IMG/VR virus record: IMGVR_UViG_3300045988_031645
Location: 1-40,649 of that record
DNA from: a virus
Length of the DNA: 40,649 nt
Strand: one strand, 5' to 3'
Part shown: piece after piece, positions 10,554 through 33,235 of the stretch
Numbering within the stretch: the first letter of the stretch is position 1
Layout: each line of letters opens with the position of its first letter
Notes under the pieces: model-generated
The model's input: the letters and a program-made list of their open reading frames with translations, nothing else
Database searches by the model: none
What the model was told of the DNA's origin: nothing
Program-made: the position numbers and the translations under genes

Positions 10554-10566
10554 TATAGCAAATGCC

Positions 10567-11019: not shown

Positions 11020-11035
11020 TCATTCCTCCTATTTG

Positions 11036-11058: not shown

Positions 11059-11078
11059 TCCCTATTGATAACTGATTA

Positions 11079-12854: not shown

Positions 12855-12855
12855 G

Positions 12856-13551
12856 TTAACCTCTTTCCTTTTCCGCTTCTACTCTTGCGGCTTCTGCTGC
12901 CACACGTTTATTTTCAGCATCCACCCGCGCCTGCTCAGCTGCCGCGCGATCCTTTTCTGCACTATCGCGTGCTTTCTCTGCATCCACTCTCGCCTGTTCT
13001 GCCTGAACGGACGAAGCCTCGGTGGAAACGCGTTCGGACTCAGCAGCTGAACGTAAGGCTTCCGCTTCTACCCTTGCCCGTTCCGCGGCGGCACGTGCCT
13101 GTTCCGCCTCCATGCGCGACTTCTCGGCGTCCGCGCGCGCTTTCTCCTTTTCGCGCCTCTCTGCCTCTTCCACTTGCGCAAGTTCGAGCCCTTTCAGCTT
13201 GTCTCTGAAATCTGCCGGTTTCTTTGTTTCGCCCTCTACAAACAGAATGCCTTTGTATGATTGCCATACACATACACCATCGATATGTGCCGTCATAAAT
13301 ACAAGTACGGAACCTGGTGTCTTTATCATTTCGTTGCTTTCGTAAACAAAGAACATGTCATTTGCTTGATCATTTCTTTTTATTTCCACGTTCACAACAT
13401 CGCCGCTAGCAGTTTCTAAATGCAGCATAAATACGGCATGGTGCAACACATCTTCGTCTATGCCAGAAATCGTAAACTCTAGCTTGTGTCCGTCCGATAT
13501 GATATAGTCGTCCGCTGGTACGCGCATAAATCGTCGTAAAACATTGATCAT
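12856..13551 (-). CDS. Fibre-like protein: N-terminal domain plus coiled coil only (231 aa)
   Basis: The N-terminus is similar in layout to that of 11079..12854. About 13 xxRxxAE heptads run to the stop codon. RBS AGGAGA. Confidence 0.7.
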   Translation of the reverse strand: MINVLRRFMRVPADDYIISDGHKLEFTISGIDEDVLHHAVFMLHLETASGDVVNVEIKRNDQANDMFFVYESNEMIKTPGSVLVFMTAHIDGVCVWQSYKGILFVEGETKKPADFRDKLKGLELAQVEEAERREKEKARADAEKSRMEAEQARAAAERARVEAEALRSAAESERVSTEASSVQAEQARVDAEKARDSAEKDRAAAEQARVDAENKRVAAEAARVEAEKERG

Positions 13552-17262: not shown

Positions 17263-20200
17263 TCAATACTTCGAAAAGGTGGTCGTCTTGTAGCCTGCGA
17301 TCTCCCACAGCTTCTTCTGCGCATCCGCAGAAAGCCCGCTGCCTCTCAGTACCTTCTTCACGGCCTTCCGCCGGTCGTCACCATCCTTGCCGACCTTCGC
17401 AACGTCCATCTCCTCTTTCAATGAGAAGTAGTCCGCTGCATCATAACCGGCATCCGTCCAGTCCTTCAGCTTCGACGGTTTGCCCGACTCGATGCCCTTC
17501 TTCGAAAGGATCTCGTCCATGGCCTGTTCTCTTGCGAGCTGCTTCAGGTCGCCTGCAATCTTACTCTGCTTGTCCTCGCTGTCGCTTTCTTTAATGCAGT
17601 CGTCCGCCAGATCGTAGTAGTAACTCTCATATGCGTCCTGGTACTGCATGTACTCCTTGCCGCTTAGGTCGTAGGTCTTACCATCCGACTTGATGGAAGT
17701 ATCCATCACGCCAGGTAGAATCTCTGCGTTACCGTTGCTTTCCACGATGTCGTAGATCGCCTTCCGGTCTGCATCTTCTACTCCGTGATCAGACTCCTTC
17801 CGGTATGCCTTCAGTTTGTCGAGTGCAGCGCGACGAATCTCTCGTTCATCCTCCTGGCCCTTCGCAAGGCCGATTGTCTTCTGGTAGTACGACTTCATAT
17901 TACTGTCGAGCGTGCTTTCCAGTGCCTGCTCATTCGTGCCATAGGAGCTGTACATGATATCGGACTCCGATGCCTTATCGTAGATCCAGTTGCTAATGTC
18001 ATTCGAATATACATTATCACGAAGATACGTATTCTTTACACCCATCGTCCAGTCGCGCTTTCCCTTCACTCCCTTTCCGTCGTTGATTGGGAAAAGTGCG
18101 GAAGGATATGACCACATCCAGCCGAGAATGTTCTTGCCAAAATGGTCGGCCTTCTGTGGACTAATGCCGAGATACTTTCCGAGCAGGTACGCCATTTCGC
18201 TTGACTTCTCCGTGTACTGCAGTGCCGGCACCTTACCTTCATTCTGCTTACTTACGATCGGACGGTTGAGGTAATCCTTATTCGCTCTAAGCTGCGACAT
18301 TTCGCCAACAGCACCGAGTGAGCCAAGAAATCCGGTCGTAAAATCATCGTTTGCCGACTGTACTCCATTCGCCACTACATTGACCGGATATTCTGCCAAA
18401 TCAGACACAATACTCGGAAGTGTGCTGTCGGTAAGGTAGCTGTAATATTCGTTGAAAGCGTGGTCGTTATCGCCCACCGTTCTCTCAAGAAGTCTCTCAA
18501 AGAACGACTCAAGCACAGCTACGTTCTGTCCCTTCGGGATGGTGAAATACTTTCCATCGCCTAACGAGATACAGAAGTAGGAGTTTTTCGTGTAGTTCGA
18601 AAGCATATCGAAATCATCCTTGCTTTCCTTATTCCTACGCGACCATGCGACGACGAGTGCAGCCATGATCAGAGACAGCGCTGCGGAGAATGCAATTCTG
18701 CCTGCAATCGCCCGTCCTCTCTCCTTTCCGTTCACCTCAAACCATTTTCCGGTACCGTCTCCGCCGTCTCCACCGTCTCCGGCACCGCCGACGAATTTCA
18801 TCTCCCGAAGATCCTCGGCAGTGAAGTATCGGATCATCTTGTCCGTTGCCTGCACGCCTGCATTGAAGAACGGGATAAACTGGTTGAGCGTTTTTGAATT
18901 GATGCCATTTCTACGGAAGTTTACCGTGATGTCCATCGCAGCATAAAATGCCTTCTGCGGATTCATGCCTGCTTCACGGCACATCTTATAGGTTGCGAAT
19001 CTCGGCCCCATCTCGATCATATCCGAAACAAACATCGCCCATTTGAGCGGATTCATTTCCGGGTGCTCTCTCGTAGAGCTGAGTAACTTTCGCATGTCCT
19101 TTACATAGTCCTTGCTGCCGGACCATACCGGTGCACCCTCACCGCCCATCGCAAGATACTCGGAGAAGAGCGGATCAACACTCTTGCCCCGTGCGTTGTT
19201 GATGTAGTTGAGGTAGGTATCTGCGACACCCTGCAGCATCTTTCCAGGATTCTTCGTCGCCATCGAGTACGTAAGCAGCGTCTGTAGATCTCTCGGCGCA
19301 TTGGAGAAGATCGACCAGATCACATTGTTTCCGGTGATATTTGACGTGATGAATCTTGAAACCGCTCCGAAAGCCGTGATCACCTTGCTGGCGTTCCGGT
19401 AGTCCATGGAAGTGATGGAGCTAAGAAGCAGCGGATCATTGATCTTCCAGAACTCCGGCTTACCGGCTACAAGAATCTTGATCTCACCTCTGTTCGGTTT
19501 CGCCTTTCCAAGCTGGAACTGCGTCATCGTATCATCGATGGAACCAATGACTTCCTGTAAAGCATCCTGCATTTCCGGTGCGATTTCGATACCGGCAATG
19601 TCATGCGTTTCGTTATAGAGACGGTCCTTGATTCCGCGAAGATCGACTTCGACCGGAACCTTCGGATCAGGCATCTTTTCCATGAACAAGGCATCCGCTT
19701 TACTTCTTACGGCTTCTCTTCTGAGCTGAAGCATGACTGCGTTTCTCGCGGCTGCATTCTGGAGCTTCGTGATGTTGTCGATGATGTTATCAACCGGATG
19801 GATCAGATCACGTCCGCTGCCCTTTGCCTTGAACAGCGAATTGCCGCGCTCCTTGAAGCCTGCACGGAAGAACGGTACATAACACGGGTTCTCCTTCTGC
19901 ATCGCCTTATATGCGTCCGCAGAAATCAGCCCCTCGCCAACCGCGTAAGTCCACATGAAGTCGCTTTCAAACTTGTATAGTCTGTCAGCAGCTTCGATGA
20001 ACTCCGGGTGCTCTGCTTCGATCTCCGAGATCCGGTTCTCCATCCACTGCGCGTTGTTCTTGCGGTCATCCGCAAATACACGCTTGCCCTGGGCGATCCA
20101 CTCAATACCATGCTTCACCGCGAGGTACTCACCGAATGCGATATAAACTTCCTTGTCGTTCACATCGATACCGGCGAGCGCATCTTTAAGACCTGGGCCA

Positions 20201-23200
20201 ATATAATTACCGTCCAGATCATAGATGCCCTCTATGATGGTCTGTGCCACTCGTGCATCCGTATAGGCTGCATTCGTCGCATAGGTATATGTATTGGTGC
20301 CGTTTCTGACATCGAACTCGCGGAAGCCATGAACGGAATCTACATTTTCCTGGTACCAGCCATGATACCAGTCGTGAAATTTCTCCATGTTCGTCCGGTA
20401 GTCCGGTCGGCTATCCTCTTTCAGTCTGATCGAGCTCTTCGCGTCGCCAGCGTCCATCGAATAGTATGCGTTCACCTGATCCGCGAAGCCGTTAAACTTC
20501 GCAAGCTCCCCAGGGCTCATCTGCTTGAGGATGTAGTCGGTGAGCTTCGGGAAATCGATACGCGCTGCATCGCGGTTCTGTAAGTAGTATCTTACAAACT
20601 CTGCAAGTCCCTCCTTTAACTTGACCGATGCACTCTTTCCGCTATAGAGATCAGCATTGTCCGGGTTCATGAAAAATGCGGTCTCGATATCCTTGCGCAC
20701 TTCCTTCGGAAGTCGTGCGCTGCCAGTAATGTTGTAGGTCTTGTCGAGCCAGTGACCGAACTCGTGTGAGAATGTCGGAAGGTCGTTCGTGATCTTCGTC
20801 CGAATTCCGCGGTTCCGCTCATTGAACTCGCCCATGTTTCCTTCACCCTTCACATACCGGGTGCCGGATGTTACATTGAATCCCCAGTCATGCGCCGCCT
20901 GACCAATGATATCTGACAGACGCTTCGATGAAGTCTCCGCACTGCCCTCGTTCTTCTTAGCCGTCCAGCGCTCCTCTGGCTTCTCGCCGTCCTCGTTCGG
21001 TGTTGGATTCTTCTTAGAGTTCAGCACTCCGCCGGACTTATCGCCCGTGTCGTCATGCTTCGACATACTATGAAGCACACCATCATCGTCCTCTGTTCCT
21101 GCTGACCTTACATCCATAACAGGATTTGAGCGGATGATTGATCCTAGTGTGTATTCACCTTTAGATCCTGTCGGAATGAAGTATCTCTTTTCGTAGCCGA
21201 TGGTTTCCGAGATGATTCCTTCAACTCTGTTCAATGCCCAGAGATTGCTACCAGTGACTTCGATTCTCCACTCGCCAGACACTTTCCGTCTTCTGATCTT
21301 CCACCTGTTGTCTCTGAGTACAAGTTCCTGATTCTTGTCAAGCACCTCTGACATCAGAGACTTCAATGTGTACTGCTTTTTTGTACGCGCAGTGCCGAGA
21401 TTACGAAGAACAGAGTCGATCTGATCCGGGCTGATAACTCGACCGAGATACTGCTTGCCATCCGTGGTGACGATACGCATGACTCGTGTGTTGTTTTCCG
21501 GTAATTTGCTCCAGATCGGAAGAAGCGTACCAGTAAGCATATGCAGAGTATTTTCCACATATTCCGGCGCTTTCTGCGTTTCCGCCTCCCACGCCTTCTT
21601 CCACTCCTTCTTTGGCAGCTTTTCGGCCTGCTCATTGAACGTTTTTTCTACAAAGTAGCTGCTCTTTCCCCTCACAGGACCATCAAGCCTGTACTTCTGA
21701 ACGACTTCTCCAGTGCGCTTGTCGGTGGTCGTGCTGCCTTTATACACGGCTCTCACGGAACCATCCTTCAGCCGGTACATACCCATGAAGTTCAGATGCG
21801 CATCTTCAACACTTTCATACGGAATAAGCGTAGGTCTGTTATAGACCTTCAGCTGTACGTATTTTGTTTCGGCATGCGTATTCTCATCCTGGTAAACAGG
21901 CTTTTCGTCTGCGACTTCGATCTTATCCGCCTTGTAGGACTCCATGCCACGGTCAAGTGTTCCGTCCTTCATCGCGTTTTCGGTCATTTCTTCGAGAATA
22001 GAATAGAAGTTTTCGAACACTTCGTTCTGGTCCTCTACTCGCAGTGCAAGGATTCGGTTCAGGAACTTCGGCACGTTTCGTAAATCGGTAGATGATTTAT
22101 TAATCAGACCATTCTTATCATAAATCTTGATTCCAAGTTCTCTGATTACTTCATCCGGTGCACTCTCATAGTATTTTGCAAGTGCGTCCTCAGAAATCGG
22201 ATTTTCAAGATTATCCCTTTCACTGAACACGCCGCTTCCTGCGTCTCTCTGGCCCTTCGTGAGTGCACCCATCTGATTAAGGCGCTTCGCAATCGTCGAA
22301 GTGAAACGCTTCTGGCCCATTACATTGGTTGTTACCAGCTTATAAATGGGTGCGCTTGCTTCGTTCGTTCTGTGCGTACGTCCCAATCCCTGAATCGCTG
22401 CATCTGCCTTCCATCCTGCCTGGAGAATGTAGTGAACTCGCTGCTGCTGATTCTTTGCACGCAGGTCTGCATGGTAGCTCTTTCCGGTACCGCCCGCCTC
22501 TGAGAAAATAAGGATTCGTTTTTTGCCGGCCTGGAATGCAGCAGTATCAGCTTCGCCCTTTTCCTTACTCCATTTCTCGACGACTCGTTTCATAGAGCCA
22601 TCTGGCTGCCGATGATAAACGACTCGTCTCGTTCTTCCGGTAACCTCAGCCACGTTATCCACGCCGAATGTATCCAGCAGCATTTCAAGCGGGCCGTCTG
22701 GCACCTGCATCTGCCCGACTTCTTCGATCAGTTTATCTCTTAATGCGATCGCCTTCTTATCAAGTACCGGTTCACCATTGCTATTGGTGACAGGTTTAGA
22801 ATGAGTATTTCCATTCTCGTCCTGGTACTCTTCGTAAGACTGCACAGGGAATGACTTCTGAAGGAAATCGATCAATGTCTCCGACGGTGTGAGGTCAAGG
22901 CCGTCGAGATCACCACCATTTTTGGCGTTATCAGCGATCTTCCGCTTTGCTTCTGCTTCATTGGTATTTGTCAGCTGAATTACAACGCTTTTACCATTGT
23001 CAAGCTGAGTCTGAATATCCGAAAGTACGCTTGGCATGGCCATTGATGTAAGAATCTGATTATAGAATCTCTGTAACGAACCCCAGAACGCGCTTGCCGC
23101 AGCTCCCCTTGCATTACCGTTATTGGAAGCTCCGGTCAATTCGAGTGCCTTATCGATATTTCGAAGCACAACTCGCCATGCATCACTCATCTTGTCATAG

Positions 23201-26200
23201 ATTTCATGCTGAATCGGAGTTAATTCGTGCTCGATCGTGTCATACTGTACACCGTCATAGCTGATGCTTCGTGCCATGTAGTCGCCCAATGACTTCATAT
23301 CTCGTGCAACAAGCTCCATGGCAGCTAAGCCGCCAGCAGACACCTTCGTATAAAAATCGTTGAAATTTGCGAATGAAGTACCAGGCCCCCAAAGTCCGAG
23401 TCTTTCGAGGTATGCGAAGTTCTCAATAGAAGATGCGCCTGTCGCCGTTGCATAGACGATTCTTGCCTTCGGGAAAGCCTCCTGAAGTTTAAGACCCCAT
23501 ATAGCCTTCTGCGTCGGCTCACTGCTTCCACGAGCTTTTTTGATACGCACAGCATTTTTCATGTTGTGTGCCTCATCAAGAACGATTACGCCATCGAAAT
23601 CTTCACCAAGCCAATTTGTAAGACGATCAATGCCATCCTGCTTTCTTGAACCTAACGTATCATAGGTAGCGAAGCAAATACCCTCGCTGGCATTAATGTC
23701 CTTATTCTTAAATTTCTTGAATGAGAATACATCCTTTTTGTCCTGCTCGAGGTCTGCCCAGTCTCTTTGAGCGTCTTCGATCAGGCTTTCTTTTTCACTT
23801 ACCCACACAGCTTTTTTGCGTCCCTGGTTAAAATTATCAAGGATGATCGAGGCGAGCTGAAGTCCCTTTCCTACACCGGTCCCATCACCGATGAAGTATC
23901 CCTTACGTTCTCCGCTCGGTAAAAACTGCTGGTGCGCCTGTCCTGCATATACAATATTCTCAAGCTGTGCGCTTGAAGGCATGCCTCTATCAATAAGCTC
24001 CTGCGGAAGATGCGGCACATACGTTGCGTCTGGCGGTTCTACTGCACCCATGGCTGCGCTCTCTACGAGCTTGCCCGGATGCGCTTTCGCGCCATTAATC
24101 CGCACCTTCTCAGGCACATATGGTGTGAATGTGCTGTTAATATCGACATTGGCTACACGTTCTGCCTTTTCACTGGATGCCGGCTTCTCCAGCTTTACTG
24201 ACTGATCAGCCCTTCCAGAATCGGATTCATTGCCTTTGCTGCTGCTTTCAGATACTCGTCGCTCGGTACTTCTTCCGGTCCCCACTCTACCGTCTTCAGA
24301 TTTTCCAGGCTTTCTGGAATCTCTTTCACTACCGTTTCGGCGTCCTCGTCGTCCACCAGATTCTCCCAGCCCTTCTTCACTGCTTTCAGAAATTCCTCGT
24401 CTGTCGGTGGCATCATCTCCGCTGCCATCATGAGTGCCTGATCCGGATCGTTCAGTTCGTTCAGGAACCACTCCTGATCGTCCCGTCCCAGATTCTGAAA
24501 CAGATTTATCAGATTCCATGTCTGATCTACTAATCGGGTTTCTCTCATTTCTTACTCCTTCCAGGTCGGTCAGCAGCTCGGAAAGCTCCTTATATTCTCC
24601 GGTTAAGGTCTTTCCTTCCTGTGGGCCTACCTTATCAATGACTACCAGCTGGTCGTCGAAAGTAGTTCCATACTTCTGATAGTTCGAACCGTCAATTCGC
24701 ACGTTCGACCGGATGGTGTATTCCCTGCGGAGGTCGTTCCACCATGCTGAGAACGCCGGTGCATCATCTGCCATGCCGCGACCGAGAATAGCGACCAGTC
24801 TGCCGCCTTCCTGTAGACGGTCGAGTGCTTGCTCGATGTGTCGCTTTGCATTGGCCGTCTTGTTGGTCTTCATTCTGCCTGCCGTAGATGAAAAAGGCGG
24901 ATTCATGATAACCACGGTCGGCTGAATATCGTCAGGAAGAACATTATTGATCTGCTCTGCATTCTCGTTGAATGTGCCGTCGAGTCCGAGCTCATTGAGG
25001 AAAGCAAGTCTGCGCTTTGAAAGCTCATTTCCATAAACCTTCGCGCCCCACGCCTTACCCCAAAGTGCAAGACCGCCAATACCGGCGGACGGCTCAAGCA
25101 CAACATCAGCGCTCGTGATATTCGCTAAGCGCGCTGCAGTGTAAGCAATCGTCGGTGGCGTAGAGAACTGCTGGTATGATTCCATCTCCTCGGTTCTCTT
25201 CGTCTGCGTAGGGATATTGCGCATGATGCTCTGGAGCTCTGACAGAGTGTTGAGCGCGTCTTCAAGTGATCTGTTTCCTGCCTTTACGAAATCGGCATTC
25301 ATCAGATACTTGTTGATGCCCAGCTCCATACCGTCATAAGCATCCTTTACGGAATATGTGCCTTCTGCCATCGTTCCGCCATAAGCATTATTCGCAACAT
25401 CGAAAAGCCAGTTTGCCGTAAACGACTGGCCGGACGCAACCTTCTCTGCAACTCTGTCCGCGATGGATGACTGCGGATTGCTGTTTGCGACCGGCTTTTT
25501 CTCCGGCGCTGCAGGACTGGTTTTTGCCGCTGGCGCTGGCTTTGATGCTTCCTTCGGTGCTTCCTTCGGCTCTTCCTTCTTTTCCTCATTCTTCTGCATG
25601 CGGATGTTGTACTGATTATATCCCAGTTTCCACATAGCGTCAGCAGCATCCGGTCCGACCGGCATCTTGTAGAACTCAGCGAAGTTGCTGTCGTTCGATA
25701 ATCTCGAATACGGCTCGCCATTTAAGCCCGCCTGGTAAACCTGTGACATGAAATTGTCCCACTTATAGACGGTCGATGTATCGACAGACGGCCACTGCTC
25801 AGAGCCAAGCGAGAAGAAATCGATGTATGTTCGTCTCTCTGCTTCCTTCGTCCCGAAACGCTTGTACGCTCTGTCCGTTAACGCATCGGCCACATCCGGC
25901 TGAAGAATTCCACCAGAAACAAAGCTGTCCGCTTCGGCAGCCGCTTTCTCGTTCCTCGTGAGGCCATTATTTTCCGCAAATTTAGTAAGATCATCGATAA
26001 CCGCGTCACGTGACTCATACGGTTTTGTGACATAGCGAAGAGCCCGACCATCGACGATCACGCCGCCGAACTTGTCGTTTTTCGTGTCACGAAGGCGGCC
26101 AACATAGCCATCCTCGTCTGCGGTTATTTCGTACTCGATCTGATCAGCCGTAAACTTTCCGTTGCTCTTGAGCTTATCATGAAGCTGATTCGTCGTGAGC

Positions 26201-28656
26201 TTCCTGTCGGAATTTCCGACAGGTTCGTTTGTTTCTGGCTCCGGTTCCTGCTGCGACTCGCTGATCTCCTGTGCCGGCGCACTCTCATCAGAACCTACGT
26301 GCTTTCCTTCGAAAATATCTACGATCTTCTGTAAATCTTCCGGCGACGCATGATTAATCGCATCCTGGTTGATGATACCGCCCTGATTAAACGCCCGGTC
26401 GATAATATCGCCCTGAGACTTCGGCTCGTCTTCGCTCTTTGGTTCCTCAATCAGATTCTGACTCTCCTCAGCCGTCGGCTCCTGGATCAAGTCCTGGCTG
26501 TTCTCTGTCTCCTGTGCGACCGGCGCTGCATCCTCCGTATTGATCGCTTCTACGGCTGCCTGTGTCGCTTCCTTCGCTGCATCCGGTGTAGAATCCGCCG
26601 TGTTCTGCTCTGAGCGCTCCTTCAGCGCATCTACTGCCTCATTCACGGCATCATGCGTAACGTCCGCCACATTCTTTGTGTCGTCTGCCGTTTTCGTCCG
26701 CTTCTTTCTCGTCTTCTTCAACTTATCGACAGCCGCATTGGTGGCGGCCTTCGTGTCAGATCCGCTGCCATCTGTCGTTACCGTAATATTGTTATCTGTC
26801 GAGATGTCGTCAGACACATCGGCGTCACTAAAAACCGGTGCTTCCGACGCCGGTGCCTGTGTGTCCATATTCTGTGCAGGAGCTTCACTGAATTCAGTGT
26901 AGTCGCGCATATCATTAAACAGCGTATTATCGTTTACGAACTGACCACTCTCGAACTGGCTCTGATACTCACGCTCCGCGTTTCTTCTCTGCTGCCAGTC
27001 GTCTGTCCGGTGCTCGATCTCATTTCCTGCGAGGTGCAGCACATCACCACCCACGTTCATGAGCATCGAATTCGCCGCGCCAAGCGCTGCTGAATACCAG
27101 AACTCAGGGTCACTTAAAGAAAGGCCCTTGACCGGATCAATGTTTCCATTCTCATCCTTACCATCACCAAGGATCACATTCTTTGCTATTCCCTGCGTCC
27201 AGTACTGTAAGCCCTCCTGTGCAGCTTCACCGAGTGCATTCGCCCCGTGCCTGCCGAAACGGTACAGAAGTCCTCTGCCGATGTCAGACTTCACCGCCTT
27301 GTTGATTCCGTCTGCCGCTGCCTTTGCGATATTCGTATTGCCGAGTGCTTTCGCGATTCTTCCGCCTCCGAATGCCTCGATACCACCAAGCAGCTTCTCG
27401 GTGTAGTATTCAGACGCCGCTTCCTCACCAGCATATAAAGCGGACCGAAGATTGCTATGCCCATCATTGATCGCTTCCTGGTATGAATGGCCGCCCTGCG
27501 AAGCACCAAACAGCATACTAGACAGTGTCTGAATACCTTTACTGCCTACACCTGCGGCACCACCTACAGCGCTTCCGAGTGCGGCCGCTCCAACCATGTT
27601 ACCGGTTGAGGATGCAATATCTTGCAGTACGCCTTCGACATTTCCGGCTTTCTCCCGTCGAATCTCTGTCTCGTAGTCATTCACAGACTTTGCGCGCTTC
27701 TTATTGTCGAGCGTCGCCCACTGCGCAATCTTCTGAAGGCCCTCGCCACTGTTCGTAACGCCTCCGACGAACTGATTAGCCACTCTACCGGCTGCCACAG
27801 CATTCGCACGGTTTCCCTCTACGTTCTGCTTCGCCACGCGGCGGTTGATGTCGTCCATGAGCTTAGACCGGTACTCTTCCGCTGCGTCTCTGCCCTGCGA
27901 GTCATACAGATGGTTGTACATGGTCTTCTGACCCGGCGTCATTTCAGAGTACTGCCGGATCTTCTCCGGGATAGCAGCTCTATTCTTTCCGTACTTCTCC
28001 GCTTCCACGTCTGCCATCTTCAGAGGATTCCCACCAGCGTTTCTGAGCGCGTTGATCGGTGCTTTTACCGCATCGACGATTGCCTTGTTGATGCCCTTAT
28101 TCGCAAAATCCGTCATGGCCACATGATGCTTCGTCGCCTGTGCAGTTTGGTTGTCGCTGTTCTTCGCGACATAATCTACGAGCGACTTTGAGACCGTCGT
28201 CTGCGTGTTTCCGGTTCTCGTCGCTGTGCTGGGCGTGGCATTACTCGGTGTAGCATTGCTCGGCGTCGAGCGGTTCTTGAGCTCGTTCAGCGCATCGTTT
28301 CGGATGTCATCACTCGTCACTGTCTGCTTCTTCGGCGTCGGACGAGTATATCCATAGCGCTTGCCCACATCATCCACCAGGTTCCGTGAAACAGTGCTCG
28401 CAGATCCTGTGTTGTAGGTCTTCTGCCGCTGCTGCATGCTGGTCTTCCGCTGTGAGCGCTCATGCGAAGACTGAATGCTGCGCTGCGTCGCAGAGTTCAG
28501 AGAATAATTGCCGTCCGTATCCTTCTCGTAGTAGTTCTCACGATAAAGCTGCTGCGTCGGCTTGTTGGCGATCTTATTGCTTTCGTCTCGGTGCTCAGAC
28601 TGACGAAGCAGTTCGTACTTCGTCTCTCTGTTTGTGATTTTTGATCTCTTTGCCAT
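17263..28656 (-). CDS. Giant polyvalent protein (3,797 aa): Gly-rich N-terminal region, N6-adenine-type methyltransferase, Strawberry-notch/SNF2-like helicase, HExxH metallopeptidase motif, C-terminal region with one TM segment
   Basis: One uninterrupted frame. The start is moved to ATG 28656 (AAGGAG upstream). Motif coordinates are listed in the module features and in the findings. Confidence 0.9.
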   Translation of the reverse strand: MAKRSKITNRETKYELLRQSEHRDESNKIANKPTQQLYRENYYEKDTDGNYSLNSATQRSIQSSHERSQRKTSMQQRQKTYNTGSASTVSRNLVDDVGKRYGYTRPTPKKQTVTSDDIRNDALNELKNRSTPSNATPSNATPSTATRTGNTQTTVSKSLVDYVAKNSDNQTAQATKHHVAMTDFANKGINKAIVDAVKAPINALRNAGGNPLKMADVEAEKYGKNRAAIPEKIRQYSEMTPGQKTMYNHLYDSQGRDAAEEYRSKLMDDINRRVAKQNVEGNRANAVAAGRVANQFVGGVTNSGEGLQKIAQWATLDNKKRAKSVNDYETEIRREKAGNVEGVLQDIASSTGNMVGAAALGSAVGGAAGVGSKGIQTLSSMLFGASQGGHSYQEAINDGHSNLRSALYAGEEAASEYYTEKLLGGIEAFGGGRIAKALGNTNIAKAAADGINKAVKSDIGRGLLYRFGRHGANALGEAAQEGLQYWTQGIAKNVILGDGKDENGNIDPVKGLSLSDPEFWYSAALGAANSMLMNVGGDVLHLAGNEIEHRTDDWQQRRNAEREYQSQFESGQFVNDNTLFNDMRDYTEFSEAPAQNMDTQAPASEAPVFSDADVSDDISTDNNITVTTDGSGSDTKAATNAAVDKLKKTRKKRTKTADDTKNVADVTHDAVNEAVDALKERSEQNTADSTPDAAKEATQAAVEAINTEDAAPVAQETENSQDLIQEPTAEESQNLIEEPKSEDEPKSQGDIIDRAFNQGGIINQDAINHASPEDLQKIVDIFEGKHVGSDESAPAQEISESQQEPEPETNEPVGNSDRKLTTNQLHDKLKSNGKFTADQIEYEITADEDGYVGRLRDTKNDKFGGVIVDGRALRYVTKPYESRDAVIDDLTKFAENNGLTRNEKAAAEADSFVSGGILQPDVADALTDRAYKRFGTKEAERRTYIDFFSLGSEQWPSVDTSTVYKWDNFMSQVYQAGLNGEPYSRLSNDSNFAEFYKMPVGPDAADAMWKLGYNQYNIRMQKNEEKKEEPKEAPKEASKPAPAAKTSPAAPEKKPVANSNPQSSIADRVAEKVASGQSFTANWLFDVANNAYGGTMAEGTYSVKDAYDGMELGINKYLMNADFVKAGNRSLEDALNTLSELQSIMRNIPTQTKRTEEMESYQQFSTPPTIAYTAARLANITSADVVLEPSAGIGGLALWGKAWGAKVYGNELSKRRLAFLNELGLDGTFNENAEQINNVLPDDIQPTVVIMNPPFSSTAGRMKTNKTANAKRHIEQALDRLQEGGRLVAILGRGMADDAPAFSAWWNDLRREYTIRSNVRIDGSNYQKYGTTFDDQLVVIDKVGPQEGKTLTGEYKELSELLTDLEGVRNERNPISRSDMESDKSVSESGTGRSGVVPERTERSGSGTHDGSGDDATDRRGISESSEEGLGESGGRRGRRNGSERDSRKPGKSEDGRVGTGRSTERRVSESSSKGNESDSGRADQSVKLEKPASSEKAERVANVDINSTFTPYVPEKVRINGAKAHPGKLVESAAMGAVEPPDATYVPHLPQELIDRGMPSSAQLENIVYAGQAHQQFLPSGERKGYFIGDGTGVGKGLQLASIILDNFNQGRKKAVWVSEKESLIEDAQRDWADLEQDKKDVFSFKKFKNKDINASEGICFATYDTLGSRKQDGIDRLTNWLGEDFDGVIVLDEAHNMKNAVRIKKARGSSEPTQKAIWGLKLQEAFPKARIVYATATGASSIENFAYLERLGLWGPGTSFANFNDFYTKVSAGGLAAMELVARDMKSLGDYMARSISYDGVQYDTIEHELTPIQHEIYDKMSDAWRVVLRNIDKALELTGASNNGNARGAAASAFWGSLQRFYNQILTSMAMPSVLSDIQTQLDNGKSVVIQLTNTNEAEAKRKIADNAKNGGDLDGLDLTPSETLIDFLQKSFPVQSYEEYQDENGNTHSKPVTNSNGEPVLDKKAIALRDKLIEEVGQMQVPDGPLEMLLDTFGVDNVAEVTGRTRRVVYHRQPDGSMKRVVEKWSKEKGEADTAAFQAGKKRILIFSEAGGTGKSYHADLRAKNQQQRVHYILQAGWKADAAIQGLGRTHRTNEASAPIYKLVTTNVMGQKRFTSTIAKRLNQMGALTKGQRDAGSGVFSERDNLENPISEDALAKYYESAPDEVIRELGIKIYDKNGLINKSSTDLRNVPKFLNRILALRVEDQNEVFENFYSILEEMTENAMKDGTLDRGMESYKADKIEVADEKPVYQDENTHAETKYVQLKVYNRPTLIPYESVEDAHLNFMGMYRLKDGSVRAVYKGSTTTDKRTGEVVQKYRLDGPVRGKSSYFVEKTFNEQAEKLPKKEWKKAWEAETQKAPEYVENTLHMLTGTLLPIWSKLPENNTRVMRIVTTDGKQYLGRVISPDQIDSVLRNLGTARTKKQYTLKSLMSEVLDKNQELVLRDNRWKIRRRKVSGEWRIEVTGSNLWALNRVEGIISETIGYEKRYFIPTGSKGEYTLGSIIRSNPVMDVRSAGTEDDDGVLHSMSKHDDTGDKSGGVLNSKKNPTPNEDGEKPEERWTAKKNEGSAETSSKRLSDIIGQAAHDWGFNVTSGTRYVKGEGNMGEFNERNRGIRTKITNDLPTFSHEFGHWLDKTYNITGSARLPKEVRKDIETAFFMNPDNADLYSGKSASVKLKEGLAEFVRYYLQNRDAARIDFPKLTDYILKQMSPGELAKFNGFADQVNAYYSMDAGDAKSSIRLKEDSRPDYRTNMEKFHDWYHGWYQENVDSVHGFREFDVRNGTNTYTYATNAAYTDARVAQTIIEGIYDLDGNYIGPGLKDALAGIDVNDKEVYIAFGEYLAVKHGIEWIAQGKRVFADDRKNNAQWMENRISEIEAEHPEFIEAADRLYKFESDFMWTYAVGEGLISADAYKAMQKENPCYVPFFRAGFKERGNSLFKAKGSGRDLIHPVDNIIDNITKLQNAAARNAVMLQLRREAVRSKADALFMEKMPDPKVPVEVDLRGIKDRLYNETHDIAGIEIAPEMQDALQEVIGSIDDTMTQFQLGKAKPNRGEIKILVAGKPEFWKINDPLLLSSITSMDYRNASKVITAFGAVSRFITSNITGNNVIWSIFSNAPRDLQTLLTYSMATKNPGKMLQGVADTYLNYINNARGKSVDPLFSEYLAMGGEGAPVWSGSKDYVKDMRKLLSSTREHPEMNPLKWAMFVSDMIEMGPRFATYKMCREAGMNPQKAFYAAMDITVNFRRNGINSKTLNQFIPFFNAGVQATDKMIRYFTAEDLREMKFVGGAGDGGDGGDGTGKWFEVNGKERGRAIAGRIAFSAALSLIMAALVVAWSRRNKESKDDFDMLSNYTKNSYFCISLGDGKYFTIPKGQNVAVLESFFERLLERTVGDNDHAFNEYYSYLTDSTLPSIVSDLAEYPVNVVANGVQSANDDFTTGFLGSLGAVGEMSQLRANKDYLNRPIVSKQNEGKVPALQYTEKSSEMAYLLGKYLGISPQKADHFGKNILGWMWSYPSALFPINDGKGVKGKRDWTMGVKNTYLRDNVYSNDISNWIYDKASESDIMYSSYGTNEQALESTLDSNMKSYYQKTIGLAKGQEDEREIRRAALDKLKAYRKESDHGVEDADRKAIYDIVESNGNAEILPGVMDTSIKSDGKTYDLSGKEYMQYQDAYESYYYDLADDCIKESDSEDKQSKIAGDLKQLAREQAMDEILSKKGIESGKPSKLKDWTDAGYDAADYFSLKEEMDVAKVGKDGDDRRKAVKKVLRGSGLSADAQKKLWEIAGYKTTTFSKY
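20752..20766 (-). other. HEFGH (HExxH) zinc-metallopeptidase motif in the giant protein
   Basis: Context TFSHEFGHWLDKTYN. This is a motif only; the surrounding fold is not identified. Confidence 0.5.
21940..24060 (-). other. Strawberry-notch-like superfamily-2 helicase module of the giant protein
   Basis: GDGTGVGKG (23863..23889), VLDEAHNMKN (DEAH at 23566..23577), FSEAGGTGKSYHAD, GLGRTHRTNE and FLNRILALRVEDQNEVF. Confidence 0.75.
24195..24548 (-). CDS. Overprinted 117-aa acidic protein in the +1 frame of the giant gene
   Basis: AAGGAG lies 6 nt before ATG 24548, and the frame is closed by TAA two codons upstream and by TAA at 24195. The sequence is protein-like with native-looking codon usage (12 of 14 Leu are CTG). 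The giant frame is low-complexity over the same bases. Confidence 0.55.
   Translation of the reverse strand: MRETRLVDQTWNLINLFQNLGRDDQEWFLNELNDPDQALMMAAEMMPPTDEEFLKAVKKGWENLVDDEDAETVVKEIPESLENLKTVEWGPEEVPSDEYLKAAAKAMNPILEGLISQ
24620..25185 (-). other. Methyltransferase module of the giant protein
   Basis: SAM motif VLEPSAGIGGL (about 25066..25100) and catalytic VVIMNPPFSS (NPPF at 24891..24902). Confidence 0.8.
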
Positions 28657-28737
28657 CACGTTCTCCTTAAAATAAAGTGAAGTTGCTACCGTCAATTATG
28701 AGTGAAGGCGTCGAAAAACGTCACCGACCTATAAAAA

Positions 28738-28765
28738 GGGACCGCAGTGTTACCACCACGGCCCC
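28738..28765 (-). terminator. Rho-independent terminator before the giant gene, followed by ATAGGTCGGT (28732..28723)
   Basis: Minus-strand RNA GGGGCCG-N14-CGGUCCC then UUUUUAUAGGUCGGU. One G-U pair makes the helix specific to the minus-strand transcript. Confidence 0.7.
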
Positions 28766-28781: not shown

Positions 28782-30272
28782 TTACATATCGCCAATAATC
28801 TTAAATTCTTTCGACATCTTCTTAGCCCATGCGCCGGCCGCTTCCTTCGCTCTGTTCCGCGCGTAGAATGCAGCCTTCGCGTCGATCATGCCCTCTGCCT
28901 TCGCGTCCTCATACGCCTGATCGTAGGCATCGTTCTTCACGGTCTCATACCGGCTCTCATACTCTGACTGAGCCATGAGATTCCGCTTATCGCTGCCGCC
29001 AGCGGACGGATACTGCTTCCTAAATGCGGAATCATCCGTATAGATATCCTTCGATACGGTCTTGCCAGATCTGCCCGACGATTTACGACCTCTGCCGGAA
29101 CCGGACGACTTCGCCGCCTTTGCCGTCTGTGCTGCTGCCGCGATCTGCGACAGAGTGGCCGCTGCATCGCCGGAGAGACCGTACTTCTTATTGTACTGGT
29201 TGATGCGGTCTGTGAGGTAGGAAGGAACCGGAAGGCCGGCCTTCGCAAGCTCCGTCGCCTGGGATATCGCGTTCTGATACTGGTTGTCGTCTCTGTTCAG
29301 CTCGTCCTGCTCTGCGCCGTACCCGAAGCTCCGGTCATTGTCATAGCCACTTCGATCCTGCTGGAAGGAGTTCCAATACTGGTTCGCATTGTAGTTCCGG
29401 TCTGTCTGCCAGTCTGAAACGTCGTCCCGATACTGGCCATAACCAAAATTACGGTCATTCTCAAACGCGCTCCTATCGTTCTGGTAGTTCTGCTGATATT
29501 GGTTCGCGTAGTAGTTACGATCTGTCTGCCAGTCGCCAACGTCATCTCGGTATCTGTTGTACTCGATATTATCCTGATTCTGATAGGCATTCAGCTTTCT
29601 ATAGTCATTCGCCTGATTGTCGGCGTACATCTGATACGCGAGGTTCAGAAGGTTCAGATTGTTATCATTCATCTCCTGCATCATGTTGTCATACGCCTGC
29701 TGTCCGGCTGCCTGCCCATAGGTTGATCCATAGCCGCCCGTCTGAGCGTTCGCCGATGCCATCGCATCGTTCATTGCTCTCTGGGCCTGAGCCTTATACC
29801 GCTCCGAATACTGGTTGTAGAGCTCGTTATAGTTGGCATCATTCTTCACATCAAACGCCTTTTGTCCCTTGATAACATCCAGGAGGCCGTTGATGGTTTG
29901 CTCGTAAGCAGAGGCATACGGAGAAGGCTTCGCTTTTTCCGTGCTTTGGAGTTGGCTTAAATAACCGTTCGTGAGCTTGCTCGTTTTAAACGTCGGTGCT
30001 TCATAGGAATCCGGTTTCGCATTGTCTGAAGCGAGCATCGAATTTTTGTAATGGTTCGTAAGCTCTGTAGGGTGAAAGCTCTGCTGCCATGACTTGGTTG
30101 CTGTTGATGCAGGTGCTACCGCTTGCTGCTGGCTCGATACAGTGAGTGGCGACCCTTGCTGTAGGACAAGCGTTTGGTTAGGCGCCTGGCTCAATGGGCT
30201 TGTCGTCGTGTAGCTCTCTTTCTTTTTCTTGTACGTCTCCGGTTTTATTCCCGTTCCGATCACTCTCGACAT
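28782..30272 (-). CDS. Gln/Asn/Tyr/Asp-rich structural (possibly internal/ejection) protein with a tandem 40-aa repeat (496 aa)
   Basis: The start is moved to ATG 30272 (GGAGGT upstream). YRDDV.DWQTDRNY.ANQY...DR..F.NDR.FGYG occurs twice in tandem (29313..29552). Confidence 0.7.
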   Translation of the reverse strand: MSRVIGTGIKPETYKKKKESYTTTSPLSQAPNQTLVLQQGSPLTVSSQQQAVAPASTATKSWQQSFHPTELTNHYKNSMLASDNAKPDSYEAPTFKTSKLTNGYLSQLQSTEKAKPSPYASAYEQTINGLLDVIKGQKAFDVKNDANYNELYNQYSERYKAQAQRAMNDAMASANAQTGGYGSTYGQAAGQQAYDNMMQEMNDNNLNLLNLAYQMYADNQANDYRKLNAYQNQDNIEYNRYRDDVGDWQTDRNYYANQYQQNYQNDRSAFENDRNFGYGQYRDDVSDWQTDRNYNANQYWNSFQQDRSGYDNDRSFGYGAEQDELNRDDNQYQNAISQATELAKAGLPVPSYLTDRINQYNKKYGLSGDAAATLSQIAAAAQTAKAAKSSGSGRGRKSSGRSGKTVSKDIYTDDSAFRKQYPSAGGSDKRNLMAQSEYESRYETVKNDAYDQAYEDAKAEGMIDAKAAFYARNRAKEAAGAWAKKMSKEFKIIGDM

Positions 30273-30414
30273 TTTGCGATACCTCCGTTGTGTTTCCGCT
30301 ATCAAGTATCTGCCTCAGCATCACTATGCGTTTGCAGTTTTCTACGCCGTGAACCTCGAGTTCTTCGAGGAGTACACGTGCAGTTCGTATATGGTTTTCG
30401 GTATATGTAATCAT
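30178..30414 (-). CDS. Hypothetical small protein (78 aa); 3' end overlaps the next gene by 95 nt
   Basis: ATGA-coupled to the upstream gene. The N-terminal MITYTENHIRTARVLLEELEVHGVENCKRIVMLRQIL reads helical, but the tail is low quality. Confidence 0.45.
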   Translation of the reverse strand: MITYTENHIRTARVLLEELEVHGVENCKRIVMLRQILDSGNTTEVSQNVESDRNGNKTGDVQEKERELHDDKPIEPGA

Positions 30415-31268
30415 TGACCTACCACGCTTTTTATATAGTTGCTAAGCTCCATTCCGTTATAGTAAAGAGCTCCGTGAATAACGACTTGCTTTTTGCCATT
30501 CACCATAAATGTAGAAGTGTCACTGTTCCCCGTCCATCCAGCCCAAAGGAGAAGTTTTCCTGTTCCTGATACATCTCCTGTAGACATTCCGGTAACTTCG
30601 TCGCTCGACTGAAATATATTACGTCCGTATGAATCATCAATGATAAAATCGCCCAGTCCTACATAGCCTTTTCGAGCAATCAGAGGTATATTGTCTCCAC
30701 CATAAATTTCAGAGCCATCAATACGACCACCCGTGATGGTTACGCCGTAAATGCTGCCGCTCTTGATATCCGCTGATTTGAGGCTTGCAGTTTCAATGTC
30801 AATAGAGTACAGCTTCGTGGACTTGATAGTACCACCCTCGATAGACGGGGAAACGATCTTAGCAGCGTTCACGGTCCCGCTAAAAGTGCCGTTTCCCTGA
30901 GAATCGATCTTTAGGTTTTTCGCATCTACTTCAAATTTTCCTGTTGTGAGTTTTATGCAATCTCCGGTTAGCTCCATGCTAGAGGAGCCGTCCGGCGTTT
31001 CCGCATTCAGAGAAAGCAGATCCGATAGTAGCGTAATGGATGTGTTGTAATGCTTCTCGCTGTTTTCCACTCGAAGTTCGATCTGGTCCGCTTTTACCTC
31101 AACAGATGCTAGGTGCTCGCCTCGCTGCGCGTAAATCAGTCGCGCGGACTCCGAATAGTTCTCTTCCGGCGTGAGGTTATTAAACATGTAGGTCAGATTT
31201 TCATTCAGTTCATAAAGATACGACTCGATCTTGCTACTATCGACGGTATCCTGTGTGAATATAGCCAT
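30411..31268 (-). CDS. Tail spike/fibre-like structural protein (285 aa)
   Basis: ATG 31268 is preferred over the GTG at 31277. Repetitive beta-rich segments are present (GGTIKSTKLYSIDIETASLKSADIKSGSIYGVTITGGRIDGSEIYGG). Confidence 0.6.
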   Translation of the reverse strand: MAIFTQDTVDSSKIESYLYELNENLTYMFNNLTPEENYSESARLIYAQRGEHLASVEVKADQIELRVENSEKHYNTSITLLSDLLSLNAETPDGSSSMELTGDCIKLTTGKFEVDAKNLKIDSQGNGTFSGTVNAAKIVSPSIEGGTIKSTKLYSIDIETASLKSADIKSGSIYGVTITGGRIDGSEIYGGDNIPLIARKGYVGLGDFIIDDSYGRNIFQSSDEVTGMSTGDVSGTGKLLLWAGWTGNSDTSTFMVNGKKQVVIHGALYYNGMELSNYIKSVVGQ

Positions 31269-32799
31269 TGATCTCACTTCCCAGCTCTATAGTGTTTGCC
31301 ATCGCGACGATCCTGCACGGGCCGGTGCCCTCGATGCGGATGCGATACTTACTGCATCGTCTCGGGATGATCGGGATCGTATAGGTCTTATCCATCGCGC
31401 TGCGGATAAATCCCTTCTGCTCCCACATAGGTCCGTCGTCGAACTTCGCAAAGAACTTCACCTCGCTGCCTACCGGCATCACGAAACTGATAAGCACTTT
31501 CGAAACATACTTCTGTTCCATCGCAGATCCGCGCAGATCCCCCGACTCAAGGAACCATCTGATCGGTTCCGTGTCGTTTCCGTAAATATCGCGAAGATTA
31601 TTCTCGGAATCGACATAATGCAGCATGCCTTCCGAATACTGAACGAACTTGAAGACTGCATCGTCCTCGACATCCCATACACTGGTAAGCGGATCATACA
31701 CGAGCAGCGTCTGTGCGCCGCCCAGCTTGCACGACAGATAGAGCTTGCCGTCGTACTGTGCTGCCGCCGCGTCCGTGATTTCCTGCGTGATGTTCGCCGA
31801 GATCTTCTCAGGCACGCCACCCAGGTATCTGTACACGCCATCCATGGAAACATAATACAGAGTTTCGTTGATTGTTACGAGCGACCTATCACAGCCTGCG
31901 CGCACACCAGGCAGCGTCTTTTCAAGTAGGGAGAAGTTTGACGGCTTGTCGCCTCTCAGCACGTGGAAGGTTGATTCCTTAAAAAACACGAGATACGTGC
32001 CGTACTTGCTGATACCGGTGAAGTCTCCGTCTGATCCTACCGTCGCCGCCCATGCGTTGTTCGCTTCCTTCTCGTAGTTGTACCAGTTCTTCGGGTCTCC
32101 AACCTTGCAGCAGTAGACCTCGTGATTCTTGCTGGAGCATCCCCATAAGCGGTTGTCTCGCTCTGTGATGAAGTCCATGTCCGGTACTTTCCGCTCGAAT
32201 GTAGCCGTGCTGGTGAACTGATCGGTCAGAGAACCGGTCACGATGATGTAATCGGTGCCGCCGTCGGTAATCACCTTCGTGCCGTTGTATTCTGAATTGG
32301 ACGCGCCGGATATGGTCACGCTGTCGCCGGTCTTAAAGGTGTTCCCGATGCCCGCAAGCGTGATCTTCGTGAATACGGAACCTTTCGACAGCGGTGCGAA
32401 CACGGCGCTGCCGCTTACTTTCGCTGTCATGTGATCCACGGCACCCGTGAAGGTATTGAAGATGATGTGGTCTGGGAATACGCAGATATACGCACCGATG
32501 CCGACGAGCTTCTTGTCTCCATCGGCTACGGTGAATACTTCCTTGTCCTTGTAATAGGCTTTCGTCCCGTCGATGTAGAACAGACCATTCTTATAGAAGA
32601 TGCCTTTCGGATTCTCGAAGGTCTTCTCTACGGTGCCTCGTGCCGGCCTGGTGCTGATCGCAGGGTAATGTCGATCGCACATATTCTTCATCGCGGCCCA
32701 CTCTCCCCGACTCGTGATCATGTTCTGATTCACGCCCAGGAAGCGGTCCGTGATGGAACTCGCCCGATTATCTGATGATGTGATCTGTGGTAGTCGCAT
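31237..32799 (-). CDS. Structural (tail/adaptor-region) protein, 520 aa
   Basis: AAGGAGG precedes ATG 32799. Large beta-rich protein in the portal-proximal structural block. Family not recognised. Confidence 0.6.
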   Translation of the reverse strand: MRLPQITSSDNRASSITDRFLGVNQNMITSRGEWAAMKNMCDRHYPAISTRPARGTVEKTFENPKGIFYKNGLFYIDGTKAYYKDKEVFTVADGDKKLVGIGAYICVFPDHIIFNTFTGAVDHMTAKVSGSAVFAPLSKGSVFTKITLAGIGNTFKTGDSVTISGASNSEYNGTKVITDGGTDYIIVTGSLTDQFTSTATFERKVPDMDFITERDNRLWGCSSKNHEVYCCKVGDPKNWYNYEKEANNAWAATVGSDGDFTGISKYGTYLVFFKESTFHVLRGDKPSNFSLLEKTLPGVRAGCDRSLVTINETLYYVSMDGVYRYLGGVPEKISANITQEITDAAAAQYDGKLYLSCKLGGAQTLLVYDPLTSVWDVEDDAVFKFVQYSEGMLHYVDSENNLRDIYGNDTEPIRWFLESGDLRGSAMEQKYVSKVLISFVMPVGSEVKFFAKFDDGPMWEQKGFIRSAMDKTYTIPIIPRRCSKYRIRIEGTGPCRIVAMANTIELGSEINGYIHTGYRR

Positions 32800-33235
32800 G
32801 TGGCCTCCTTAATGGCATGTGCGTCCGTCTGTACCAGCTCGCGTACTGGCTCCACTCGTTCTCAAATGCCGCTGCTTCCATGTTGTAGCGATTGACCTCG
32901 CCGTTGTAGAAGTCGATCTTCGCAAACACATAGGTCGTATAGCAGGCGTTGAACTGATCCGGTATCAGCAGCTCACGTTCTGCATCCTCGTCATAGACAT
33001 AGGACTTGAATGCTGGCGGCTCAGCCGGTGGCTGCTCGTCCGGCTTGTAGTTATCCACGCCAGGCAGTACCGTGACCGGCTCTTTCGGGATCGGTGGCTT
33101 CGGCGGCTCGGCTCGAGAAATCACCTGATCCATCGCCATGAACTCGACCTCGTTCACCCATTGCGTGATCATGTCTTTCGTATACTCGCTCGGTCTGAAG
33201 CTCGTAACATGCGCGACTAATTCAGATAGTGTCAT
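32768..33235 (-). CDS. Putative head-tail adaptor/connector protein (155 aa)
   Basis: Called from its position after the portal and Prp genes, its size, and GAGGTG before the ATG. The assignment is positional only. Confidence 0.45.
   Translation of the reverse strand: MTLSELVAHVTSFRPSEYTKDMITQWVNEVEFMAMDQVISRAEPPKPPIPKEPVTVLPGVDNYKPDEQPPAEPPAFKSYVYDEDAERELLIPDQFNACYTTYVFAKIDFYNGEVNRYNMEAAAFENEWSQYASWYRRTHMPLRRPHATTTDHIIR

Follow-up and report, generated by a model that had tools for sequence, protein, structure and literature searches.

A 3,797-residue phage protein links a methyltransferase–Strawberry-notch cassette shared with conjugative plasmids to a conserved C-terminal LPD38 module

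Our analysis of a viral DNA stretch of 40,649 nt (hereafter the window, from IMG/VR record IMGVR_UViG_3300045988_031645; all gene coordinates refer to the whole window) concerns a single minus-strand gene at 17263..28656, which encodes a giant protein of 3,797 amino acids (aa) and occupies 28.1% of a 40,530-bp phage genome. By its domain content, this giant protein belongs to the phage-type polyvalent proteins described by Iyer, Burroughs, Anand, de Souza and Aravind 2017 (PMC5512222). It combines unrelated domains, namely a methyltransferase, a Strawberry-notch (Sbno) ATPase, a zincin-like peptidase and LPD38, which these authors list as a phage-only polyvalent domain, and its gene lies in a late-gene setting, flanked on the same strand by genes for terminase, portal and an N4-type capsid protein. 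A first-pass annotation made from the sequence had already placed the protein in this class, and the LPD38 match (PF18857, aa 3347-3529, 18070..18618 (-); Pfam 4e-19, 69.8-74.7 bits versus a cut-off of 27) bears this out. We consider it fairly probable that the protein is packed in the capsid and released into the host together with the DNA, and that it is built as a constant chassis carrying an exchangeable payload.

The open reading frame (ORF) is genuine, because it recurs in a full-length orthologue with 90% identity and in a fragment with 99% identity, and because its ratio of nonsynonymous to synonymous substitution rates (dN/dS) is low. The ORF listing gives a single minus-strand open frame at 17263..28695, with 3,810 codons counted from a TTG at 28695; translation from the ATG at 28656, which stands behind a Shine-Dalgarno sequence read from the DNA (AAGGAG, 28663..28668 (-), 6 nt between its end and the ATG), gives the 3,797 aa plus stop. 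In an exhaustive HMMER search the orthologue P0092 (3,821 aa) aligned with the giant protein end to end, and P0056, the 99% fragment, comes from a third sample, while P0001 only looks shorter (1,682 aa) because the start of its contig, L001, falls inside the gene. Over the last 1,680 codons, which could be compared with the P0001 DNA, dN/dS is 0.094, and the values of sub-domains range from 0.025 to 0.13 wherever estimable, the 40-codon linker at aa 2521-2560 giving no value because its dS was saturated. The giant protein is under purifying selection in every testable segment, and composition is uniform across the gene. The explanation of such a long ORF as an assembly or sequencing artefact, through a chimera or a missed frameshift, is effectively refuted by these data, and a split of the frame, which the first-pass annotation had named as something that would change the picture, was not found. 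The continuous frame, its 28% share of the genome and all of the motifs quoted in that annotation were recovered, the motifs at positions right within 1-3 nt. No match to the giant gene was obtained among phages by megablast, nor to the whole protein in a sequence search of the PDB or in NCBIfam.

The conserved ends of the giant protein

BLAST comparison with homologues divides the protein into three independent blocks, aa 1-1075, ~1076-2525 and 2555-3720. The first was matched in this comparison by very close relatives only, the second comprises the methyltransferase and Sbno domains, and the third recurs, with 38-49% identity, in proteins that are 1,500-2,650 aa long. Judged from these alignments, conservation in the giant protein is highest over its C-terminal ~1,170 residues. 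A profile search with the aa 2555-3720 block retrieved 69 proteins, all except five with a C-terminal LPD38, and their N-terminal Pfam domains vary (Sbno, SNF2, ADPrib_exo_Tox, ART-PolyVal, PBECR3, Zeta_toxin, LPD3 and LPD23). The ~1,150 C-terminal residues that the first-pass annotation could not place are actually the conserved core of this family, with LPD38. In an AlphaFold2 model built from 48 sequences, aa 2555-3740 (1,186 residues) form one compact, mostly helical unit with a mean predicted local distance difference test score (pLDDT) of 84.7 and a predicted TM score (pTM) of 0.81, and disorder is confined to a Gly/Asp-rich stretch and several loops. The fold found no significant match in the PDB (best E 0.2; weak local matches to PrpR of M. 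tuberculosis were not used). Among predicted viral structures it has 83 matches. Each of these is the C-terminal portion of a giant phage protein, and the annotations of the N-terminal portions include RelA/SpoT, lysozyme-like and methylase. In this Foldseek search of BFVD the best 38 matches, except rank 7, had E values of 1e-33 to 1e-16 and TM scores of 0.45-0.62, and for lower-ranked matches the TM score falls to 0.14-0.43.

The first domain of this C-terminal module is the predicted zincin-like metallopeptidase domain (aa 2565-2745, 20422..20964 (-)), which was delimited from its HExxH motif, the alignment, profile searches and the model. The motif, HEFGH at aa 2631-2635 (20752-20766), has an HExxH counterpart in 24 of the 24 LPD38-bearing homologues of the first search, and an alignment of 29 sequences shows H2631, E2632, H2635 and E2682 to be invariant and E2686 and R2689 nearly so. 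Candidates for the third zinc ligand are the invariant Glu2682 and the nearly invariant Glu2686, which lie in the next conserved helix. In the model, a helix and three strands are followed by the HExxH helix and then the Glu helix. A profile of the domain run against PDB sequences matched anthrax lethal factor first (E 0.013, spanning the HExxH and Glu helices), followed by the zincin-type proteins PPEP-1/Zmp1, MtfA and an ATLF-like protein, within an E range of 0.013-3; the lethal-factor-type matches agree with the HHpred result of Iyer et al. 2017 for this peptidase class (PMC5512222). The HExxH peptidase of the first-pass annotation is upheld by the invariant residues and these profile matches.

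The peptidase is followed by the conserved helical core (aa 2746-3289, 18790..20421 (-)), delimited from homologues and the model, and by the Gly/Asp-rich stretch GGAGDGGDGGDGTG (aa 3290-3303, 18748..18789 (-)). With 69% gaps in homologues and a pLDDT below 50, this stretch is a lineage-specific insertion that most homologues are without, and it was ruled out as a conserved feature. The sole strongly hydrophobic helix (aa 3317-3338, 18643..18708 (-); Kyte-Doolittle 2.2) comes next; its position is conserved in homologues, where its Kyte-Doolittle value is 0.55-2.0 and weak in many. The label of a membrane-spanning C-terminal region, proposed in the first-pass annotation, is not established, because this single helix lies within a compact modelled fold and its hydrophobicity varies among homologues. 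LPD38 is followed by a helical, acidic C-terminal tail (aa 3530-3797, 17266..18069 (-)), alignable in close relatives to about aa 3720.

Homologues of the module have been studied in cultured phages. In hmmsearch, its profile matches gp20 of Bacillus phage Page (3e-114), gp75 of Burkholderia phage Bcep22 (7e-60), p72 of phage 933W (4e-49) and the giant ORF of phi24B (2.6e-49), which is 97% identical to 933W p72; the LPD38 protein of PTXU04 (PTXU04_00025) matches the giant protein by tblastn and by fold. CsCl-purified virions of JC1 contained gp69, whose identity to Bcep22 gp75 is 79% (PMC9144972). The phi24B giant protein is abundant in virions by mass spectrometry and invisible in the cryo-EM map, and its authors proposed that it is an encapsidated ejection protein whose metallopeptidase could attack peptidoglycan (bioRxiv 10.64898/2026.04.10.717836). 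The PTXU04 LPD38 protein is critical for efficient infection (bioRxiv 10.1101/2023.09.18.558157). Because module homologues are found in virions or are critical for infection, packaging and an entry-related role are the best inference for the giant protein described here.

A second conserved region lies near the other end. Behind a polar leader rich in Ser, Thr and Lys (aa 1-238, 27943..28656 (-)), which is matched only by the very close relatives P0092 and P0094, aa 239-540 (27037..27942 (-)) form a conserved N-terminal domain (N-domain) that is predicted to be all-helical and has no Pfam model. A word-indexed search gave two weak matches only, whereas the exhaustive search gave 238 representative clusters matching aa ~230-540. 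In the matched proteins, whose median length is 2,146 aa, the domain nearly always lies ~250 residues from the N-terminus, and most of them are polyvalent-type giants. YNYLY...AEEY, GNM-x-P, a Gly/Ala-rich stretch and LLGG are among its conserved motifs. The Gly/Ala-rich region seen in the first-pass annotation is indeed present, as a glycine-zipper-like segment at aa 352-374 (27535..27603 (-)) adjoining the GNM-x-P motif region, and can now be described as part of a conserved domain of ~300 residues. The C-terminal module also occurs in nine of the 150 N-domain representatives listed and, conversely, the N-domain is present in many complete members of the module family. A further 17 N-domain giants without the module have in common a different HExxH domain and a long C-terminal core of another kind, and carry ART-PolyVal, PBECR3/5, LPD23 or LPD3. 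On the basis of these matches, polyvalent proteins have in the N-domain a second constant end-piece, outside the coverage of Pfam. Its AlphaFold2 model is all-helical and of low confidence (pLDDT 57.5, pTM 0.38). The giant proteins of Page, Bcep22, 933W, phi24B and N4 lack the N-domain, which sets the protein of the window apart from them.

The first weak N-domain match was the 1,332-aa protein P0031 (L005 10001-13999), which is encoded near a 1,516-aa FtsK/SpoIIIE ATPase, a WXG100 protein and DUF4176 proteins, a neighbourhood resembling a type VII secretion locus. From this locus, the N-domain may also be used outside phages.

Long linkers separate the N-domain from the enzymatic domains. An acidic low-complexity linker with 19-25 Asp+Glu per 100 aa (aa 541-760, 26377..27036 (-)) is followed by a region without a Pfam match (aa 761-1138, 25243..26376 (-)), of which aa ~767-1028 are common to two other proteins of ~4,000 aa, P0110 and P0118, both with the C-terminal module. 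A Lys/Pro-rich linker extends over about aa 1020-1075, and a Ser/Arg/Gly/Glu-rich linker (aa 1345-1510, 24127..24624 (-)) separates the methyltransferase from the ATPase. All three types are visible in the composition per 100 aa, in agreement with the acidic and Lys/Pro-rich linkers of the first-pass annotation.

The divergence of the gene from its close relatives is mosaic, with aa 301-600 (26857-27756) and aa 3347-3797 (17266-18618) standing out. Compared with P0092, the N-domain is just 52-72% identical, with insertions and deletions, and the enzymatic core 98-100%; compared with L001, dS reaches 1.2-1.8 in LPD38 and the C-terminal tail versus 0.15-0.43 elsewhere. This pattern suggests recombination replacing end modules.

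A methyltransferase–Strawberry-notch cassette shared with plasmids

Between the two ends lies a methyltransferase linked to an Sbno ATPase. The methyltransferase region (aa 1139-1344, 24625..25242 (-)), assigned from its motifs and a PHROG match, has the features of a Rossmann-fold amino-methyltransferase, with the TP motif (STPP), motif I (EPSAGIGG, aa 1188-1195) and motif IV (NPPF, 24892-24903) in that order. Iyer et al. 2017 (PMC5512222) describe this order for the EcoKI/TaqI-like group. The region matches a PHROG DNA-methyltransferase family at 6e-12, and its comparison with EcoKI M gave no better than E 0.42. The fold and the amino-methyltransferase chemistry are supported by these motifs, and the substrate would presumably be DNA rather than RNA, with N6-adenine as the target.

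The predicted ATPase comprises an N-terminal P-loop domain (AAA_34, aa 1525-1822, 23191..24084 (-); Pfam 8e-113) with Walker A GDGTGVGKG (23863-23889) and DEAH (23566-23577), and a C-terminal domain (Helicase_C_4, aa 1989-2239, 21940..22692 (-); Pfam 1e-80) with FSEAGGTGKSYHAD (aa 2051-2064), GRTHRTNE (aa 2092-2099) and FLNRILAL (aa 2198-2205). Both matches span the full profile, and Walker A, the DEAH box and GRTHRTNE (arginine finger / motif VI) are all intact, so that the first-pass identification of a Strawberry-notch ATPase stands. Homology to plasmid Sbno proteins continues past Helicase_C_4 through to aa 2525, defining a C-terminal extension of the cassette (aa 2240-2525, 21082..21939 (-)), a candidate for the winged-helix extension specific to Sbno ATPases.

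A translated search with aa 1100-2300 found the Sbno ATPase in none of 50,697 phage records and the methyltransferase part alone in five, while plasmid records with a match to this query numbered 637, and in 411 the alignment covered at least 80% of the query. Proteins of conjugative plasmids align with the methyltransferase, both Sbno domains and the extension at 43-50% identity over ~1,370 residues. The best plasmid match is WP_014133156 (2,547 aa) on a conjugative plasmid (MOBP, MPF_T) of Methylotuvimicrobium alcaliphilum, where the gene directly follows traJ, traI and the genes for coupling protein, traF and topoisomerase III. Like the protein of the window, it is a giant multidomain protein, and it is encoded in a DNA-transfer operon and has its own HExxH motif (HELGH) further on. 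In contrast to our protein, it begins at the methyltransferase (43% identity to aa 1158-2525) and has no N-domain or C-terminal module, and its delivery would proceed by type IV secretion and not from a capsid. Iyer et al. 2017 recorded a few cases of Sbno-type ATPases in polyvalent proteins and cited a Methylomonas example (PMC5512222). Several metagenomic relatives already join Sbno to the LPD38 module, and for this reason the fusion is older than this phage. As far as these alignments go, the cassette is a mobile unit common to plasmid-type and phage-type polyvalent proteins.

Genome context and features of the phage

The ends of the window, 1-119 and 40531-40649, overlap exactly over 119 bp, which indicates that the genome is complete, 40,530 bp long and either circular or circularly permuted. 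Genes for the large terminase (35334-36728 (-)) and for a 608-aa portal protein (33508-35334 (-)), the largest ORF besides the giant gene, are followed on the minus strand by four virion-type genes of 155, 520, 288 and 507 aa and then by the giant gene; the 520-aa product matches an 'internal virion protein' PHROG. On the 3′ side follow a 289-aa gene (putative scaffold), which occupies the place of the pre-capsid gene in Page-type genomes, the capsid gene, an endolysin gene and tail-fibre-like genes. The N4-gp56-type capsid named in the first-pass annotation is confirmed by TIGR04387 (1e-87). In contig L004 (531-4766) the same four upstream genes precede a giant homologue, and this block stops just before holin and endolysin. 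Here, the four upstream genes (28782-33235) and the giant gene lie as a block between the portal and scaffold genes. A strong terminator-like hairpin (12-bp stem with 8 GC pairs, then a T-run; 28738..28765 (-)) and, after it, a weak promoter-like site (28695-28724 (-)) were detected by consensus scan between the 507-aa gene and the giant gene.

Compared with the LPD38 giants of cultured phages (phi24B gp47 / 933W p72, PTXU04_00025, Bcep22 gp75 / JC1 gp69 and Page gp20), our protein has the giant size and the homologous C-terminal module (~800-1,100 residues) in common. Their genes likewise lie among virion genes, in phages with podovirus-type relatives. In Bcep22 gp75 and all close relatives the metallopeptidase lies upstream of the core, as here. 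However, identity is ~20-25%, and none of these proteins carries the methyltransferase–Sbno payload. The share of the genome also differs, with 28% here against 22% in JC1 (PMC9144972) and, calculated as gene over record length, roughly 22% in Bcep22, 14% in 933W and 13% in Page. Finally, the giant gene closes the structural module in all of Page, Bcep22, 933W and phi24B, with lysis or accessory genes behind it in the first three. Since the gene of these relatives ends the structural module, its position between portal and scaffold in our phage is a local rearrangement and not a slot shared with N4, as had been proposed in the first-pass annotation; in N4 itself, gp50 lies beyond the capsid gene and ends the late operon. 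The virion RNA polymerase gp50 (3,500 aa) resembles our protein as a giant packaged protein of a phage with a capsid of the same TIGR04387 family, and has a metallopeptidase domain in its C-terminal region according to Iyer et al. 2017 (PMC5512222). Searches of Pfam, PHROG and NCBIfam revealed no RNA polymerase domain in our protein, and homology to gp50 was rejected because the module profile does not match it; the gene position is also different.

Judged by the capsid protein, the closest phages in culture are Bacillus phage Page and its kin in the genus Pagevirus, and the Page record labels its portal podovirus-type. The virion of our phage may be short-tailed and free of a tape measure. 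Relatives were found in human faecal samples and Clostridia genomes, and their endolysin has CHAP and choline-binding domains, which points to a Gram-positive gut host. A large serine recombinase with Resolvase, Recombinase and Zn_ribbon_recom domains (7370-8845 (+)) indicates a temperate phage.

The window also contains a diversity-generating retroelement at 8972-12854. It consists of a reverse transcriptase gene (8972-10312 (-)), a template repeat (10425-10553), a 150-aa accessory-like ORF (10567-11019) and a variable repeat (11085-11213) at the 3′ end of a 591-aa DUF6273 tail-fibre-like gene (11079-12854), and 12 of the 13 mismatches between the two repeats are at template adenines. Imperfect repeats at multiples of 21 nt (12150-13146) are common to the 591-aa gene and a 231-aa gene, which match one and the same 'virion structural protein' PHROG; these repeats may encode heptad-type (coiled-coil) segments.

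Probable delivery with the phage DNA and its alternatives

We infer packaging, ejection, proteolytic processing and antirestriction for this protein and envisage three layers. A constant chassis, formed by the N-domain (aa 239-540) and the C-terminal module (aa 2555-3720), would probably supply an encapsidation and/or ejection function, because homologues of the C-terminal module are virion proteins and one of them is needed for efficient infection; it could, as one example, contribute to a conduit across the envelope. Through its flexible low-complexity linkers, the chain could be threaded. The middle would be a swappable payload, here the 1,370 residues of N6-type methyltransferase, Sbno ATPase and extension, and this cassette could move along the entering DNA, methylate or shield it and thereby weaken restriction in cis. 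Cleavage of the polyprotein by the metallopeptidase may free the payload, as proposed by Iyer et al. 2017 (PMC5512222). The model for the antirestriction step is P1 DarB, a capsid-packaged antirestriction protein of 2,255 aa that guards incoming DNA against type I restriction in cis, and which has an adenine-type methyltransferase followed by a superfamily 2 (SF2) ATPase in one chain, as in our protein, and whose gene adjoins the portal gene; it differs in that the ATPase here is Sbno-type. Pfam LPD36 was not matched upstream of the methyltransferase, and none of the P1 packaging helpers (DarA, Hdf, DdrA) was suggested by the PHROG matches of the ORFs tested, which were not searched for them directly.

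Several observations weigh against this account. The case for packaging comes from distant homologues, with ~20-25% identity in the module, and the conduit is speculation, as the module resembles no solved structure; its hydrophobic helix may just be an interior element of the fold. The metallopeptidase scores are marginal (best E 0.013) yet consistent. The putative hairpin upstream may make the giant gene its own transcription unit. Pfam methyltransferase models stay below their cut-offs (N6_Mtase 15.5 versus 20.4 bits, MTS 20.1 versus 23), and the best PDB sequence match of the domain is a tRNA guanine methyltransferase, so that DNA is a presumed substrate; the amino-methyltransferase of the first-pass annotation holds in its intact motifs and PHROG match but not at the level of Pfam. 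The phage also has a free-standing second methyltransferase, a separate small DNA methyltransferase gene at 39282-39992 (-) (phrog_757, 8e-21), which makes the need for one in the giant protein unclear. Similarity to P1 DarB is not significant (best BLASTP E 0.21, no match by phmmer). Orthology to DarB was rejected on these grounds, and the antirestriction role is argued by analogy alone; the protein is DarB-like at most and falls outside that family.

In N4 and T7 the genome is drawn in as virion or early RNA polymerases transcribe it. By comparison, the Sbno ATPase could serve chiefly as a motor, pulling or ratcheting the phage DNA into the cell while tethered to an ejection module, with methylation being secondary. 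Its Walker A, DEAH and motif VI are intact, it is covalently joined to a module with a homologue proposed as an ejection protein, and Sbno ATPases belong to the SWI2/SNF2 double-stranded DNA translocases (Iyer et al. 2017, PMC5512222). However, homologues with the same chassis carry motor-less payloads such as ADP-ribosyltransferases, nucleases and Zeta toxin, which implies that a motor is not generally needed for entry, and the same cassette occurs in plasmid proteins that use type IV secretion. We regard a mainly motor function as quite unlikely. Alternatively, the protein might remain unpackaged and serve a cytoplasmic late or prophage function, for example in methylation of progeny DNA, as an assembly factor or as a methylase–helicase defence or exclusion system. 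The terminator-like and promoter-like sites directly upstream, compatible with an independent unit, and the serine integrase of a temperate phage would fit such a role, as would the pairs of methylase and SF2 ATPase that restriction and defence systems likewise contain (Iyer et al. 2017, PMC5512222). Module homologues are, however, physically present in virions, the gene lies inside the morphogenesis cluster in the same orientation, and its counterparts in relatives are always preceded by tail or virion genes, which makes a purely cytoplasmic role an unlikely explanation. Delivery of a chassis and its payload with the phage DNA is the reading that we prefer.

A bolder version of the delivery reading would be that the N-domain and the C-terminal module form a general 'ejectosome' delivery chassis of a large clade of short-tailed phages, able to carry any payload, and that in this phage a plasmid-type methyltransferase–translocase is tethered at the entry channel, where it methylates and perhaps reels in the genome. 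We consider this idea rather unlikely. If true, DNA entry, protein delivery and antirestriction would be physically coupled in one polypeptide.

The polyvalent class and giant LPD38 virion proteins are already known. What is unusual here is the largest genome share among the examples compared, an Sbno payload present in no deposited phage record searched, and a clear bookend architecture with an N-domain that escapes Pfam detection and a confident model of a 1,186-residue module without a solved counterpart. Giant polyvalent proteins are widespread and very little about them has been put to the test, and the infection and virion evidence for LPD38 proteins is recent. The 1,370-residue antirestriction-type cassette, common to conjugative plasmids and a phage, documents a direct exchange between these elements. 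The protein could serve as a compact model for the loading and delivery of very large cargo proteins, and its architecture could guide payload-swap engineering.

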